A stretch of DNA of 64,000 nucleotides from Candidatus Xenobia bacterium (GTDB lineage: Bacteria; Vulcanimicrobiota; Xenobia; Xenobiales; QWHO01). Positions 8,534 through 20,855 of the stretch are shown here, piece by piece. A model generated the notes under the pieces. It did no database searches. It saw nothing but the letters and a program-made list of their open reading frames with translations, and was not told the DNA's origin. The position numbers were made by a program, and so were the translations under genes. Numbering within the stretch: position 1 is the first letter of the stretch; every line of letters begins with the position of its first letter. Location of the stretch: assembly GCA_045863235.1 (NCBI GenBank), contig BTUM01000007.1, positions 32,001 to 96,000 of the forward strand, given 5' to 3'.

Positions 8534-8950
8534 TCAGGTCCAGGGGTCTATCAGTCTGATCCCACATCCGTGAAAGTCTCGGACGTTGCGGGTCGCGAGC
8601 GAGGCTCCCGCTGAGCGTGTTACGGCGGCGATTTGCGCGTCGAATTGCGAGATCGGCTGACCAGCGCGGCTCCGTTCGGCCGCGATCAAAGCATACAGGG
8701 GAGCTGCCTCGGTGCCGAACGAGAGAATCCGGCCGGCGAAGTCTTCGCGAAACATCGCGCCCGCAGCCTCGGTGAGCGCGGTGCGGCGGCGACCGGATGG
8801 AAGCAAGGCCAGGCCGTGCAGGATCTCGGCCTGGGTGATGCTGGTCAGAAAGAGGCTCGAGGGAGGCTGCTCGGCCATCCAACGCAGCACTGCTTGCTCG
8901 GGACGCTCGCGCATCAACTCGGAGAGGACGTTCGTATCCAGGACGATCAT
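8534..8950 (-). CDS. vapC: Type II toxin, VapC/FitB PIN-domain RNase
   Basis: MIVLDTNVLSEL..., FDAQIAA and LATRNVRDF; true start is the ATG at 8950, overlapping the antitoxin stop. Confidence 0.93.
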   Translation of the reverse strand: MIVLDTNVLSELMRERPEQAVLRWMAEQPPSSLFLTSITQAEILHGLALLPSGRRRTALTEAAGAMFREDFAGRILSFGTEAAPLYALIAAERSRAGQPISQFDAQIAAVTRSAGASLATRNVRDFHGCGIRLIDPWT

Positions 8951-9186
8951 TGCCCGGGGGGGGTTCGAATCGGCTCGCGGGGGGGCAGCTCCAAATCCAC
9001 CCCACCCAGCTCCTCGAACCTTTTCCGAATCGCATCGGCCAGATCGGGAACGGGCGACTCCTGCGCCAGCACGGCACACAGGATGTTACGGGCTTCCTCC
9101 TCCATGGAGCAATTCCGCTGGGCGGCCCTTATCTTGAGCCGGCGCTTGGTTTGTTCATCCAGGTTTCTAATGGTGATGCTGGCCAC
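8947..9186 (-). CDS. FitA-like ribbon-helix-helix antitoxin
   Basis: (M)ASITIRNLDEQTKRRLKIRAAQRNCSMEEEARNIL; GTG start at 9186 after AGGAGAG. Confidence 0.9.
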   Translation of the reverse strand: MASITIRNLDEQTKRRLKIRAAQRNCSMEEEARNILCAVLAQESPVPDLADAIRKRFEELGGVDLELPPREPIRTPPGQ

Positions 9187-9308
9187 CGTACTCTCCTGTG
9201 CAATCAATGATTTCATTTTATGCATTGCTGGTGGCCGGGTCAAGCTCATCGAATCTCATTGTCCGGAGCTCGCGGCCGCGCCACGCCGGGCCGGCCTTCC
9301 AGGCGAAC

Positions 9309-15927: not shown

Positions 15928-16476
15928 TTAAAGCCTGGACGATCCGGGCAGCACGAATCCGGGAGGGGCCTCGTAGTTGAAGCCCTCGGGCAGTTGCACG
16001 CCGGGCATGTCGGTGGGCCCTGGCATCATTCCGGGCATCATCCCCGGCACGATCGGCATGGGGGCGGAGGTATCCAGGACGGGAACACCAGGGGTGGCCA
16101 CCCGGAAGGCGGTGGTGCGCAGGCAGACTTCCTGGCCCGGGACCCGGAAGCGAAACTCGGGGGGCGCCTGTCCCATCATGACCACGGCCTGGGGGGCGGT
16201 CAAGAGCTCGACCGGGCCGGCGCTCTTCACCTGATAGGTCAGGTAGGCCACGCCCAGGCGGTGGGTGGTGACGTTCACGAAGACCTGGGCCTGGGTCAGG
16301 CCCGGCACGGGGACTGGCTGTGTGGCCCCGTTGGCCAGCTCGACCGTGGCAGCGCTGCGATTGCCCACGGAGGTGGAGCAGTCGAGCTCGAGCTGGAAGA
16401 GCACGTCCGAGAGCGCCGCCAGAGCCGGGGAGAGCAGCAGGAAGAACAGCGCCACAACGATCTTTCGCATCGCCAT
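15928..16476 (-). CDS. Hypothetical secreted protein
   Basis: Signal peptide MAMRKIVVALFFLLLSPALA; Pro/Met/Gly-rich C-terminus; the upstream extension in the ORF track overlaps the C26 gene. Confidence 0.7.
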   Translation of the reverse strand: MAMRKIVVALFFLLLSPALAALSDVLFQLELDCSTSVGNRSAATVELANGATQPVPVPGLTQAQVFVNVTTHRLGVAYLTYQVKSAGPVELLTAPQAVVMMGQAPPEFRFRVPGQEVCLRTTAFRVATPGVPVLDTSAPMPIVPGMMPGMMPGPTDMPGVQLPEGFNYEAPPGFVLPGSSRL

Positions 16477-16517
16477 GAGGGTAGCTCGCCGGGATGGTGG
16501 GTTCTGTTGCCGGGGAG

Positions 16518-17210
16518 TTAACTTCTGGCTGCTTCCACCAGGCGGTCGAACAGGCTCTGCTGCGATCGCATGTCCTCGGGGTGGAACTGGACCCCGAGCT
16601 GAAAGCCTCCCCGGCGTCGCTCGATGGCCTCCGCGGTGCCGTCGGCAGCGCTGGCCACCACCTGAAAGGGAGCGGCCAGGCGGTCGATGGCCTGGTGATG
16701 GATGGAGTTGACCCGGGGGTTGGCTCCGAGTAGTTTGCGCAACTCCGAATCCGGGGCCGTCTCCAGGCGGTGGACCGGTTCCGCGCGTAGGGCCGGGTCG
16801 TCCAGGACGCGCTCGGGGGCGTGCTCGGGGAGGTCCTGGTGCAGGCTGCCCCCCGCAGCCACGTTCATGACCTGTAAGCCGCGGCAAATGCCCAACAGGG
16901 GAAGGTCCTCACGCAGGGCTTTGCGGGCCCAGGCCAGCTGGAAGCGATCCAGCTCGAGGTCGTGCTCGGCTGGTAGCAGGGGACTCTGGCCGTAGAAGCC
17001 GGGATGCAGGTCTCCACCGCCGGGAAGAATCAGTGCCTGGGGACGGGAGAGGGGCCGGGCACCGGGCTCGAGCAGCTCGGCTTCGGCTCCAGCGCGCTGC
17101 AGGGCCTCCTGGATGAGGGGGATGGTGCGATGGGTGGGACCGTTTCCGGCTGTGGCGCGGATGGGCTTGAAATAATTCCGGGGGATCAGGATGGCAACTC
17201 GGATCAGCAT
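16518..17210 (-). CDS. Peptidase C26 / gamma-glutamyl hydrolase (PuuD-like class I glutamine amidotransferase fold)
   Basis: LPGGGD, nucleophile elbow LGICRGLQ, VNSIHHQAI and GVQFHPE triad. Confidence 0.9.
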   Translation of the reverse strand: MLIRVAILIPRNYFKPIRATAGNGPTHRTIPLIQEALQRAGAEAELLEPGARPLSRPQALILPGGGDLHPGFYGQSPLLPAEHDLELDRFQLAWARKALREDLPLLGICRGLQVMNVAAGGSLHQDLPEHAPERVLDDPALRAEPVHRLETAPDSELRKLLGANPRVNSIHHQAIDRLAAPFQVVASAADGTAEAIERRRGGFQLGVQFHPEDMRSQQSLFDRLVEAARS

Positions 17211-17251
17211 ACGTACCTCTGATTGTTGGATTGGGGCGCGAGGACTTTAGC

Positions 17252-17332
17252 TCAGCGACAACAACAACAGAGGCAACAACAACGGTACGAGGAGGCAGCG
17301 AAGAAAGGCGCGTCCTGGATGTACCGCATCAT
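17252..17332 (-). CDS. Poly-cysteine leader peptide MMRYIQDAPFFAASSYRCCCLCCCCR, putative attenuator sORF
   Basis: Read directly from the minus strand; 7 Cys in 8 consecutive codons (6 TGT, 1 TGC); ends 41 nt upstream of the C26 start. Confidence 0.8.
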   Translation of the reverse strand: MMRYIQDAPFFAASSYRCCCLCCCCR

Positions 17333-17338
17333 AGGGGT

Positions 17339-17367
17339 ATGATAACCGCTCCACTCCTTTCTGGCAA
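17339..17367 (-). promoter_or_regulatory. Sigma70-type promoter predicted to give a leaderless transcript
   Basis: TTGCCA-N17-TATCAT on the minus strand, 6 nt before the sORF ATG. Confidence 0.75.
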
Positions 17368-17484
17368 GCCCGGGATGTTACAATTCAGTTGCGGCAAAGT
17401 CGTGACGGGCATCTCCAGCCACAAGTGACCGGTACATAAGGCGCCGCACCCTTTCGGAATGGCGGGCGCCGTTCAACAGATTGT

Positions 17485-17535
17485 CTACACTCCCGCGCGT
17501 TCCAATTCTGAACAGGTCGACGCGCGGGAGTGTAG
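17485..17535. repeat. Perfect 16-bp intergenic inverted repeat
   Basis: CTACACTCCCGCGCGT (17485-17500) and ACGCGCGGGAGTGTAG (17520-17535). Confidence 0.8.
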
Positions 17536-17690
17536 CGTCAGGCAACAAACTCGGCTCGCTTGCTGAATCTCATTCCAGTCGTTTCGGCGAATATCTGTTC
17601 GCCCCCTGAGGCTCAAACTCCCGGAAGCAAAGCGCTCTGGAAAATCAGGGGATTCGAAGGGCCCGGACGGATCACGACGAAACGAAGCTC

Positions 17691-20600
17691 GTGGCACTTC
17701 AGCCTGGGCAGTTGCTTGGAGATCGCTACCGCATTTCGCGCGTCCTGACCAGCGGCGCCATGGGTGCGGTGTATCAGGCTGAGGATTCCCGGATGCAGTC
17801 TTATTGCGTCATCAAGGAGATGCTCGAGATGCAGCCGGGATCGGCTGACGACCAGGCCATCATGCGCCGCTTCGAGGAGGAGAAGGCCATTCTGGCGCGC
17901 GTCAGCCATCCCGGCCTCCCCCGTGTGCGTGATTTTGCGCTGGTCAACGGTCTGTGCTACATCGTATCGGATTTTGTCGAGGGCACCAGCCTCGAACAGC
18001 AGCTGACCGATTGTCTCAAGCAGACCGGCCGTCCCGTTCCGGGACGCGAGCTGGTGCCAACCATCCTCTCGGTGCTGGAGATCCTCGAATACCTGCACTC
18101 GCTCACTCCCCCGGTGCTCCATCGCGATGTCAAGCCGGCCAACATACTGTGCGAAGCCCGCAGCGGCAAGGTCATGCTGGTGGATCTGGGTCTGTCTCAG
18201 CCGCTGGATGCGCGACGCACCCCCTCCGGGGCCAACACTCTGGGGTATTCGCCCCTCGAGCAGATTCAGGGCCGTCCCGAGCCGCGCTCGGACCTGTACG
18301 CTCTGGGTGCAACCATGAGCCAGATGCTTTCCGGGCAGCTCCCGGTGCCTCTGGGAATCCCCCCCCTGGCGACCCTCACCTCGCTCGTCGATCCCCCCCT
18401 GGCGGCTCTGGTCGATCGGGCCTGCGCTTTCAACCTGGAGCATCGCTTCGCCAGCGCCCGAGAGATGCGTCAGGCCCTGGCTGCCTGGCTGGCCCGGGCC
18501 AGCGGAGAGCCTGTCCCGGCTGAAGAGGCGCAGTCGACCGATTCTTCCCCGCGCCGGCCGCGCCCCGCCCCGGTCTTTCCCAGCAAGTCCGGAACCGTGC
18601 CGACCGGACGACCACAGGTCGTGCCTCCGATGCCCAGTTCGTCTCCTGTCGCTCGTCGCGAGTTCGGACGTGCCGCTGGCGAGGGACCCCCCGGGGGGGC
18701 GCCCGGAGAGGCGCCGGCATCCGTCGGCTCGTCTGAGGTGCCAGCGCCGGCCCAACCGCCGGCAACACCGCCTCCCATGGCACAACCGCCCGCTCCGGCC
18801 CCCCCAGCTCCAGGACCGGTTGGAACGTCTTCGCCCCTGCCCCCGATTCAGTCCGCTCCGCCCGTCGCTGCTCCGATGCCTCCGGCTCCGCCGGTGGCCG
18901 CCCAGCCGGCCGCTCCGATGCCTCCCGCCCCGCCCGTGGCCGCCCAGCCGGCCGCTCCAATGCCTCCCGCCCAGCCCGTGGCCCAGCCGGCCGCTCCGAT
19001 GCCTCCCTCCCCGCCCGTGGCTCAGCCGGCCGCTCCGATGCCTCCAGCCCCGCCCGTGGCTCAGGCCGCCGTTCCGATGCCTCCAGCCCCGCCCGTGGCT
19101 CAGGCCGTCGCTGCGATGCCCCCGCCTGTGGCTCAGCCGGCCGCTCCGATGCCTCCCGCCCCGCCCGTGGCCCAGCCGGTCGCACCGATGCCACCCGCCC
19201 CGCCCCTGGCCCAGCCGGCCGCTCCGATGCCCCCGCCCCTGGCCCAGGCTCCCGTCCCGCCCTCGATGCCTCCGGCGCCTCTTGCTCCGCCGGGCGTGAC
19301 TCCACAGTTTGCTTCGGCCCAGCTTCCCATGGCCCAGCCTCCCGGTGCCCCACCGGTGCCCCCGATGGGGTCGGCTTTCCCCCCTGCCACGGGCCCCATG
19401 AGTCCCCCTGCAGGTGCCGCCTGGCCGCCGCCTCCCGATACCGAGTCAGCCGTGATATCGGGCCCACCTCCTGCGCAGCCGGCTCTCATCCCTCCGAGGG
19501 GCGAGGCCTTGCTCCCCCCTCTGCCCGGGTCGAGACCTGGCCCCCCGCCCATGACCGAGGGGATGGATGAGGCCCTGGATGCGCCGATGCCTCCGCCGCT
19601 TCCGCCTCTCAATCTTCCGGATAGTGCCGCCAGGCTGGAGCCGTGCGAGGTCACGCTGCCGTCCCCGAGTTCACATCTGGCGGCCCCGCGTCCGGCTCCG
19701 CCTATTCCCAGCTTGCGGCCCGATGCTCCCGAGCCCGCGCCTTTGAAGCTGGCCCTGGAGCGTCCCGACGCTGCCGGGCGGCCACCGATGAGTGCCCCGG
19801 AGCCAGAGCCCGACCTCGAGCCTCAGGCCGAGGTCAGTGAACCTGATCATGAACCCTTTGGCGGGCCAGAGACCCCGCCACCATTCGACCCGTATCTTGA
19901 GCCCGAGGAGCCTTATGCCCAGCCTTCTGCTCCGGCCGCAAAGAAGGCTGCGCCGAAAGAGAAGAAGGCAGGACGCGGACTTCCCCTTCCGGCCATCCTG
20001 GTAGCCGTGTTGCTCGTCGTGGTAGGCGGATTCTTTGCGGGACGCTACTTCAACCAGGGTCCCCAGCCTGTGGCCAGCGAGTCTCCCACGGTCACGCCCT
20101 CGGATGAGCCCTCAACAGAGCCTTCACCCACTCCGGCAGCCTCGGTGAGCCCCGAGCCTGTGGCTTCGGCCAGTCCGGAGACCTCGCCCAGTCCATCGGC
20201 CAGTCCCGAGCCGGTCGCCTCGGCCAGTCCTTCGGTCAGTCCCTCAGCCAGTCCGGAGGCTTCGCCCAGCCCGTCGGCCAGCCCCGAGCCGTTGGCCTCG
20301 GCCAGCCCGGACGCATCCCCCAGCCCGTCCGCTTCTCCCTCTGAGGTGGCCTTGCAGGACGCCGATGATGACCGGGAAACCGACCCGAAGGCTTCGTTGC
20401 CCCCTCCTCCCACCTCCAATCCCACCGCCGAGGGAGGGCTGAAAGTCGAGTCGACCGGGGCGGGCCTCTCCTTCGAGGTCCCGGCCGGGTTCGAAGTGCG
20501 CCGCAACAACTGGGGCAAGCACAGTGCCGAGCTTCATTTCCGCAAGGTGGAGCCCTGGGGAGAAATGCGCCTGCGCGTAAAAGTTCAGCTCGGACGCAGC

Positions 20601-20855
20601 GGCTCGCGCATGCTCAAGAGCTACGAGCAGGTGCTGAAGGGCGCTTGGAGCTCGGTGACCCCCAAAGGCCTGGATGAGTTCGCCCTGGTCGGGGTGGACG
20701 GCCGGGGGATGAGCTGGGTGGGGGCCCGCCGCCGCGACGACGAGCACGTGGTCTTCGCGACCGTGACTTACAGCTGGGTGGGCGCGAGCGCACCCACAAC
20801 GGGGTTCGAGGAGGCAGCTGGGGTGGTTCGCTCCAAGCTGGAGTTGCCCCGCTGA
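17691..20855 (+). CDS. Membrane-bound Hanks-type Ser/Thr kinase with a long Pro-rich linker
   Basis: GAMGAVY, VIKE, HRDVKPAN, DLG, SDLYALG; one TM helix (ILVAVLLVVVGGFFAG); Ser/Pro-rich stalk and a C-terminal domain. Confidence 0.92.
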   Translation: MALQPGQLLGDRYRISRVLTSGAMGAVYQAEDSRMQSYCVIKEMLEMQPGSADDQAIMRRFEEEKAILARVSHPGLPRVRDFALVNGLCYIVSDFVEGTSLEQQLTDCLKQTGRPVPGRELVPTILSVLEILEYLHSLTPPVLHRDVKPANILCEARSGKVMLVDLGLSQPLDARRTPSGANTLGYSPLEQIQGRPEPRSDLYALGATMSQMLSGQLPVPLGIPPLATLTSLVDPPLAALVDRACAFNLEHRFASAREMRQALAAWLARASGEPVPAEEAQSTDSSPRRPRPAPVFPSKSGTVPTGRPQVVPPMPSSSPVARREFGRAAGEGPPGGAPGEAPASVGSSEVPAPAQPPATPPPMAQPPAPAPPAPGPVGTSSPLPPIQSAPPVAAPMPPAPPVAAQPAAPMPPAPPVAAQPAAPMPPAQPVAQPAAPMPPSPPVAQPAAPMPPAPPVAQAAVPMPPAPPVAQAVAAMPPPVAQPAAPMPPAPPVAQPVAPMPPAPPLAQPAAPMPPPLAQAPVPPSMPPAPLAPPGVTPQFASAQLPMAQPPGAPPVPPMGSAFPPATGPMSPPAGAAWPPPPDTESAVISGPPPAQPALIPPRGEALLPPLPGSRPGPPPMTEGMDEALDAPMPPPLPPLNLPDSAARLEPCEVTLPSPSSHLAAPRPAPPIPSLRPDAPEPAPLKLALERPDAAGRPPMSAPEPEPDLEPQAEVSEPDHEPFGGPETPPPFDPYLEPEEPYAQPSAPAAKKAAPKEKKAGRGLPLPAILVAVLLVVVGGFFAGRYFNQGPQPVASESPTVTPSDEPSTEPSPTPAASVSPEPVASASPETSPSPSASPEPVASASPSVSPSASPEASPSPSASPEPLASASPDASPSPSASPSEVALQDADDDRETDPKASLPPPPTSNPTAEGGLKVESTGAGLSFEVPAGFEVRRNNWGKHSAELHFRKVEPWGEMRLRVKVQLGRSGSRMLKSYEQVLKGAWSSVTPKGLDEFALVGVDGRGMSWVGARRRDDEHVVFATVTYSWVGASAPTTGFEEAAGVVRSKLELPR
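18860..19250 (+). repeat. Coding tandem repeat, about 10 units of PAAPMPPAPPVAQ
   Basis: Roughly 33-42 bp degenerate units built on CAGCCGGCCGCTCCGATGCC; boundaries approximate. Confidence 0.85.
20135..20342 (+). repeat. Coding Ser/Pro repeat (SASPEP/SPSPSASP)
   Basis: Recurrent TCGGCCAGTCC/TCGGCCAGCCC units in the kinase extracellular stalk; boundaries approximate. Confidence 0.7.

Follow-up and report, generated by a model that had tools for sequence, protein, structure and literature searches.

A short open reading frame (sORF) that ends in a run of cysteine codons lies directly upstream of a peptidase C26 gene in a Candidatus Xenobia bacterium, and this raises the question of whether the sORF could sense cysteine and control the gene behind it. 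The locus was examined within a 64,000 nucleotide stretch of contig BTUM01000007.1 (positions 32,001 to 96,000), referred to here as the window. A sequence-only reading had proposed a leaderless, cysteine-sensing attenuator that could mask a gamma-glutamyl hydrolase's ribosome binding site. The attenuator interpretation is supported by the comparative and folding evidence, and the element at the source locus would be a Cys-sensing translational attenuator of the Ms5788A type with a probability of about 0.75, as judged from sequence comparison and RNA modelling. The element itself is real and conserved.

The features of the source locus are listed in Table 1. The promoter TTGCCA-N17-TATCAT, placed 6 nt before the ATG of the sORF by the sequence-only reading, was verified at all of its minus strand coordinates, and was the sole sigma-70-like match in the region 16400-17800 (10/12, with a shuffle mean of 0.2). 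The leader ORF ends in CCCLCCCCR and a gap of 41 nt separates it from the C26 start codon at 17210. Transcription is predicted from the sequence to start at or adjoining the A of the sORF ATG (17332). No terminator-like hairpin was found between the sORF and the C26 gene at this locus. Nothing in the leader matched an Rfam covariance model at E <= 5, and the two matches elsewhere in 16000-18500 were at chance level.

Table 1. Coordinates of the leader and the regulated gene at the source locus, numbered along the window.
Feature	Coordinates	Strand	Remarks
-35 hexamer TTGCCA	17362..17367	-	sigma-70-type promoter
-10 hexamer TATCAT	17339..17344	-	17-nt spacer after -35; ATG 6 nt later
26-codon leader ORF MMRYIQDAPFFAASSYRCCCLCCCCR	17252..17332	-	ATG at 17332; stop ends 17252
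Putative sensor tract, 7 Cys codons (6 TGT, 1 TGC) with one Leu in between	17258..17281	-
5' hairpin within sORF	17282..17327	-	arms 17327-17321 and 17288-17282
Putative anti-SD strand, Cys-Leu-Cys-Cys codons	17262..17273	-	pairs with 17228-17216
Predicted repressing helix, 3' strand	17216..17228	-	contains SD core GAGG 17219-17216 of C26 gene
Partner strand of alternative register	17212..17217	-	with 17289-17284
Predicted target gene, encoding a putative gamma-glutamyl amide hydrolase of 230 aa (peptidase C26 / class I glutamine amidotransferase-like)	16518..17210	-	ATG 17210

Four of six RNA runs were used, all as contigs, which give neither a transcription start nor an expression level. A contig from run X1 spans the promoter (16951-17494), with DNA or read-through as its possible source. 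A contig of a relative from run X5 extends over the Cys run and the C26 gene into the gene that follows; its end lies at 17292, and it carries an in-frame gap of 3 nt inside the Cys run. Just 5' of the promoter, window positions 17440-17535 hold a dispersed palindromic repeat with two hairpins, to which approximately 47 places in the genome align over at least 60 nt and which was found in other contexts in RNA contigs. This repeat is REP- or MITE-like and lies outside the attenuator. Two further minus strand features of the window were noted by eye: a 1054-aa Ser/Thr kinase-like protein (17691-20855) that has a membrane segment at its C terminus and a long linker of Pro-Ala-rich repeats, and tandem antitoxin-like and PIN-domain-like ORFs resembling a FitAB/VapBC-type pair (8534-9249).

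A Cys run by itself is common in the source genome (65.8% GC), where 540 stop-terminated frames passed a loose filter, and a loose poly-Cys pattern run over 46 genomes returned mostly off-frame runs within genes (30 loci checked). When a promoter and a near-leaderless ORF were both demanded, the source genome gave 113 candidates, with CCC in five rows (four places); no triple of W, H, F, T, L, I, M, Y or K was present among them and VVV was present in one. The source leader stands above chance because of its promoter, its reading frame, its TGT bias and its conservation in 19 loci.

The conservation was examined across relatives of the source organism. A promoter, an in-frame Cys-run ORF and a stop were found before 19 of the 22 members of one C26 clade of the Vulcanimicrobiota, the 19 loci being kin from three genera rather than independent samples. 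The remaining three members are second copies that have no Cys leader; these copies (L012:2324, L196 and L197) belong to three genus-g2 genomes, and one of them is situated directly 3' of the led copy. A C26 match was obtained in 39 of 61 genomes searched, and the best per-genome matches (E <= 1e-53) were preceded by the leader in 17/17 cases, with an upstream ORF ending in 6-10 Cys; the 17 led genomes are 5, 6 and 6 from three genera of two families. A metagenome scan of 80 loci contained two orthologues, both led, and a promoter-led Cys ORF was found at none of the other 78. At 93 more distant C26 loci no stop-terminated frame upstream held over 4 Cys. A search of 201 genomes of the phylum with a promoter-plus-Cys pattern, which covered the 17-nt spacer only, turned up no leader at the 15 loci that were inspected from outside the class, so that a leader there is "not found" rather than "absent".

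A quick tree built from 71 proteins placed all 19 led copies in one 22-row branch (SH-aLRT 97), which nests among other C26 proteins of the phylum and apart from the actinobacterial rows sampled. The lineage had been described from the letters as apparently non-actinobacterial, and this was upheld: by the depositors' labels, four of the eight close genome matches are Vulcanimicrobiota/Eremiobacterota, two are only "bacterium" and two are "uncultured Burkholderiales". The neighbouring genes differ between genera, and only the leader and the C26 gene stay together. Within the genus of the source organism a gene for a protein of approximately 180 aa with a signal-peptide-like start (window 15928-16476, minus strand) follows the C26 gene in four of five genomes; its product had no match in a Pfam and NCBIfam scan, and it is followed by a PLD-like gene and then by sbcD and sbcC. 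In several genus-g4 genomes a conserved 238-aa protein, for which no Pfam match was found, adjoins the C26 gene (L037:4758-5471, also L035, L036 and L038).

The promoters of the led loci are similar in layout, a TTG-led -35 hexamer with a spacer of 17-18 nt being present at 19/19 in a pattern search, and the weakest are those of L009-L011 with 6-7 of 12. The term leaderless, taken from the sequence-only reading, fits the predicted geometry of the source locus and of four others, but at the other 14 of 19 loci the distance from the -10 hexamer to the ATG is longer. This distance is 6 nt in 5/19, 9-10 nt in 6/19 and 14-26 nt in 8/19 loci.

The folding of the source leader gave a minimum free energy (MFE) of -41.5 kcal/mol with z = -2.4, and 3 of 200 shuffles folded as well. 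The 5' hairpin was present in the MFE structure of the free RNA with an ensemble probability of 1.00, and similar hairpins were seen in L002, L004 and L005; in the model it would keep the 5' half of the sORF from competing with the repressing helix. The complementarity between the Leu-Cys-Cys stretch of the sORF and the strand containing the SD of the C26 gene, which the sequence-only reading had pointed out, was verified with one bulged base, and at the source locus the SD core was paired to the sORF with a probability of 1.0. The 16S anti-SD of the source organism is assumed, no 16S 3' end having been recognised. Whole-leader alignment with MAFFT failed to align the helix, and the pairs were taken from the folding ensemble of each locus separately. 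Both the poly-Cys sORF and the pairing proved to be kept before orthologues, as had been suggested for checking: the computed probability that the sORF pairs with the SD core was at least 0.73 at 17 of the 19 led loci, the values for L006 and L009 being 0.37 and 0.53.

The anti-SD strand, a CCUC-like motif, is placed at or beside the first Cys codons and occurs in three codon phases, encoding Cys/Thr/Ser-Leu, Pro-Cys or Pro-Leu, and Ser-Cys. The residues differ by genus with matching changes in the spacer. The use of three codon phases therefore indicates selection on the RNA pairing that is separate from selection on the peptide. At 12/19 loci the native sequence did better, at the 5% level, than uniform synonymous recodings (60 recodings per locus; 30 for L017, L221 and L222). 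GU-rich tracts pair promiscuously, and when the cognate duplex was compared with 1500 other RBS regions it ranked in the best 10% in just 9/17 loci, a test that is weakly discriminating. Spacer shuffles were beaten at the 5% level in just 6/16 loci.

The effect of a translating ribosome was modelled with an assumed footprint of -15 to +14 around the A site. Placing the ribosome on the second Cys codon lowered the cost of opening the SD by at least 3 kcal/mol in 14/19 loci, and from 12.7 to 2.9 kcal/mol at the source locus; at L006, L007, L009, L010 and L013 the drop was below 3 kcal/mol or there was none. The opening cost climbed again at several loci with the ribosome at the stop codon, for example 12.7/2.1/12.7 at L016. 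In the equilibrium model of the source locus the ribosome freed the SD core only in part, the unpaired probability being 0.54 for a ribosome on the first Cys and 0.01-0.15 for one on Cys 22-25. An alternative register, also put forward in the sequence-only reading, is present as the complementary segments CGTACC and GGTACG but was rejected as the main state, since its probability was 0.000 in the free RNA and reached 0.97 only with the ribosome at codon 26 or at the stop. From the model it is possible that this register re-closes the helix while the ribosome terminates. By eye, 4-6 pairs of it can be formed in four leaders of the same genus.

These results are best explained by a mechanism whose transcription start, sORF translation, ribosome stall, response to cysteine and enzyme substrate are all predicted. 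Transcription would begin at or just before the start codon of the sORF. When Cys-tRNA is plentiful, ribosomes would clear the Cys run, the RNA of the Cys run would pair with the C26 SD located 36-59 nt downstream, and this pairing would block C26 initiation. When Cys-tRNA is scarce, a ribosome would wait at the UGU codons and cover the anti-SD strand, leaving the SD free. The hydrolase would then be made and would release cysteine from a gamma-glutamyl store.

The same Cys-stalling sensor could instead be coupled to Rho-dependent termination or mRNA decay, with the stalled ribosome shielding the spacer and the SD pairing being secondary. The spacer between the sORF stop and the C26 gene is C-rich and G-poor in 19/19 loci (C 10-18, G 1-5), Rho is present in 5/5 genomes tested, and the SD pairing is weak in several genus-g4 loci. 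A spacer of just 36-59 nt is however short for a Rho loading site, its C and A richness is equally needed for pairing with UGU repeats, and the anti-SD is kept in all three codon phases. Rho control has been proposed for actinobacterial cys leaders and is described as "weak" by its authors (Seliverstov et al., PMC1262725), whereas the control of Ms5788A was shown to be translational (10.1101/834739). Termination or decay as the output is considered unlikely.

The coding signal in the leaders bears on whether the peptide is read by the ribosome or has a function of its own. Consecutive Cys codons are located near the 3' end of the 5'-most short ORF in 19/19 led loci, and in all 19 the ATG nearest the promoter shares the frame of the Cys run; at L005, L009 and L010 the second ATG, which is the one that follows the promoter, was taken as the start. 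The leader ORFs have 11 different lengths between 24 and 39 codons, and the stop follows 0-2 codons past the last Cys, with TGA, TAG and TAA all in use. The observation that six of the seven Cys codons at the source locus are TGT, unexpected at this GC content, was confirmed and extended: TGT makes up 120/156 (77%) and TGC 36/156 of the Cys codons in the 19 leaders, against a TGT background of 3568/20006 (17.8%) in a crude gene set from the source genome only. A single tRNA-Cys(GCA) was found in the source genome, along with one tRNA-Sec and one tmRNA. UGU is read by wobble with the tRNA-Cys anticodon GCA, and this wobble reading may sharpen the sensing; UGU is also required by the SD helix.

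A peptide that is itself functional, as a thiol-rich metal-binding or redox peptide, or a nascent chain whose arrest senses a signal other than Cys-tRNA, would account for the 6-10 Cys per 24-39 residues and for the strong promoter directly 5' of the ORF. The N-terminal halves are however unrelated between genera and the Cys spacing varies freely, the strong TGT bias is needless for peptide function, the pairing with the SD of the next gene is conserved, and similar ORFs precede the terminators of cys operons, leaving this explanation improbable. Slightly less credible again is constitutive coupling or a plain inhibitory hairpin, in which (UGU)n would be the pairing strand and Cys reading a by-product: the helix does require a UGUUGU-like sequence, consistent with the 77% TGT, and in the model it is opened by a ribosome on the tract whether stalled or not, but although Val or Leu reading would be possible the ATG and stop are in the Cys frame in 19/19 leaders of differing length, the TGC substitutions preserve Cys, the Cys tract reaches past the paired part, and sulfur operons unrelated to this one are also preceded by Cys ORFs, there with another RNA structure.

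These other operons make the C26 locus one of several Cys-led operons in the lineage, a point absent from the sequence-only reading. A survey of 20 cysK regions from relatives and the 6 cysK-like genes of the source genome revealed a Cys leader before a cysK and cysE-like gene pair of the source genome (G000:C69 26758-26590, minus strand; L331). Leaders of this type were also found before cysK in G001, G002 and G015 and before cysI in G004 and G005, the one in G004 being visible only in a longer upstream stretch, giving six genomes with the source. They share a TTGACA promoter, an ATG 7 nt past the -10 hexamer, and a hairpin followed by a U-rich run, and an intrinsic terminator is present at the cysK leader of the source genome. 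The terminator-type loci, L331 with L154, L156, L193, L194 and L146, lie before cysK-cysE or cysI-cysG-cysH-cysK and also have a possible antiterminator.

The six cysK/cysI leaders could be aligned, three of them being near-identical. Pairing between a segment ending at the leader stop and the 5' arm of the terminator has an energy of -19 to -24 kcal/mol. The cognate combination of segment and arm was the best of its row in five of six cases, with G015 as the exception. In transcripts cut at the terminator loop the upstream pairing of the 5' arm was 0.50-0.85 with the ribosome on the third Cys and 0.39-0.46 with the ribosome at the stop, a shift in the direction expected of an attenuator, the margin being small in G005 and G015. 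The cysK-cysE and cysI leaders are thus, on modelling, candidate classical transcription attenuators for cysteine. The C26 leader (17262-17273) and the cysK leader of the source genome have a common Leu-Cys-Cys-Cys core sequence, which would serve as anti-SD in the former and as segment 1 in the latter, and a common origin of the two leaders is possible.

A third type of Cys leader precedes mtnB in 3/11 loci, all of genus g4 (L203:1230, L204:2294 on the minus strand, and L205:1237). In these leaders a local hairpin covers the SD, and the control of mtnB is probably indirect. The mtnB promoter of G019 (L206) is kept and the Cys ORF is absent, and in G023 mtnB is followed by a UPF0047 gene and a HAD hydrolase gene. 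The motif is tied to sulfur metabolism because Cys leaders precede cysK-cysE, cysK/cysI operons and mtnB, and together with the C26 leaders they point to a Cys ribulon in the lineage.

The sulfur gene content of the genomes was examined in the same way. CysI was found in 2/44 genomes of the class, with both copies Cys-led, and no CysI match was obtained in the source genome. CysK-family genes are present in 43/46 genomes and gamma-glutamyl transpeptidase (GGT) in 27/44. A gshB-like gene was found in 10/44 genomes and not in that of the source, GCS2-family ligases in 3/5 genomes including the source, and an E. coli-type GshA in 0/5 genomes tested. The source genome contains two GGT genes and two GCS2-family genes.

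The product of the regulated gene scores 153.7 bits against Pfam PF07722, with a cut-off of 20.5, so that the C26 part of the earlier label gamma-glutamyl hydrolase holds; the match to the PuuD equivalog (PRK11366) is below the NCBIfam cut-off (74.9 vs 266 bits), and the name is to be taken as a family label. Cys109, His210 and Glu212 are invariant in 12/12 aligned orthologues and presumably form the catalytic triad of class I glutamine amidotransferases (GATases). A structure model had a pLDDT of 89.6, and its best fold matches were lin1909, PuuD and SpuA with TM 0.74-0.82. PuuD and SpuA share the class I GATase-like fold and the triad (TM 0.74-0.79), while the structural alignments gave 26-28% identity and the clade has its own N-terminal motif. 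Approximately 110 protein clusters matched the family profile at E < 1e-78, after which the score dropped; the named organisms among them are Vulcanimicrobiota/Eremiobacterota, and the database labels for the clade are GABA-pathway enzymes or putative amidotransferases.

The neighbours gave no clue to the substrate, as the gene neighbourhood is not conserved across genera, and no polyamine genes were recognised near the C26 gene among neighbours that are partly annotated. Release of cysteine from a gamma-glutamyl store is plausible because the gene would be switched on at cysteine shortage and CysI is mostly absent. We infer, at a little under even odds, that the substrate is a gamma-glutamyl store of cysteine such as gamma-glutamyl-cysteine or glutathione. 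Plant GGP1 is a class I GATase. It is absent among the fold matches listed for the C26 model and would by analogy be a precedent for the chemistry alone. GGP1 is reported to be a gamma-glutamyl peptidase able to degrade glutathione for sulfur reallocation (PMC9804317). A literature search gave no report of a bacterial C26 glutathione hydrolase.

The closest known systems are the mycobacterial polycysteine leaderless sORF attenuators Ms5788A and Rv0815A of the "Cys ribulon" (Canestrari et al., 10.1101/834739), and the claim that such sORFs act as cysteine attenuators in mycobacteria agrees with that report, where the same layout was demonstrated by mutation for Ms5788A. As described there, Ms5788A has a short 5' ORF of approximately 30 codons ending in consecutive Cys codons, a Cys tract pairing with the following gene's SD region and no intrinsic terminator, and several operons per genome are Cys-led, as in the present lineage. 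One difference is the phylum, the regulated gene showing no sign of actinobacterial origin in the quick tree among the rows sampled. Another is the target, since a C26 hydrolase was not seen named in the text of 10.1101/834739 that was examined. The spacer is 36-59 nt here and 97 nt in Ms5788A, most leaders of the C26 clade have a short 5' leader, and the sister leaders use an intrinsic terminator.

The actinobacterial cys/cbs leaders predicted by Seliverstov et al. (PMC1262725) likewise have a pyrimidine-rich spacer, and their Cys runs fall close to the stop codon of a short ORF that precedes sulfur genes. No conserved hairpins are reported for them there, and Rho is suggested, in contrast to the conserved SD-sequestering helix found here and to the conserved terminators of the present cysK/cysI leaders. 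The trpL/hisL attenuators, as summarised in 10.1101/834739, resemble the present element in that a ribosome reading tandem end-product codons switches the RNA structure; the C26 locus differs from them in having no terminator, while the cysK/cysI leaders of the lineage do match that type. A literature search that covered few subscription journals turned up neither a Cys leader outside Actinobacteria nor a terminator-type Cys attenuator, and no Cys leader element in this phylum. Ribosome-read cysteine sensing is, in the searchable literature, proven in mycobacteria and predicted in Actinobacteria only. Comparative surveys of attenuation have reportedly been made by the Lyubetsky group.

The C26 element is very probably a cysteine-sensing attenuator; its mechanism is a known one, the phylum and the target are new, and the sister elements are wired differently. 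A wider and more tentative proposal, less secure than that for the substrate, is that this order of the Vulcanimicrobiota may have evolved its own two-way cysteine ribulon. In it an SD switch would control a hitherto undescribed bacterial gamma-glutamyl-cysteine/glutathione hydrolase, a functional counterpart of GGP1, scavenging cysteine in cells that mostly have no CysI sulfite reductase, classical terminator/antiterminator switches would act on cysK-cysE and cysI, and a third Cys leader would couple methionine salvage to a lack of cysteine. What appears to be a second and independent system, in an uncultured lineage, suggests that reading Cys codons may be a general solution for cysteine sensing. 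The sister leaders offer a natural comparison between translational and terminator output from the same sensor in one genome. For the C26 family, the regulatory signal gives a testable role to an orphan clade of approximately 110 clusters, and points to a cytoplasmic route by which cysteine could be recovered from gamma-glutamyl thiols.
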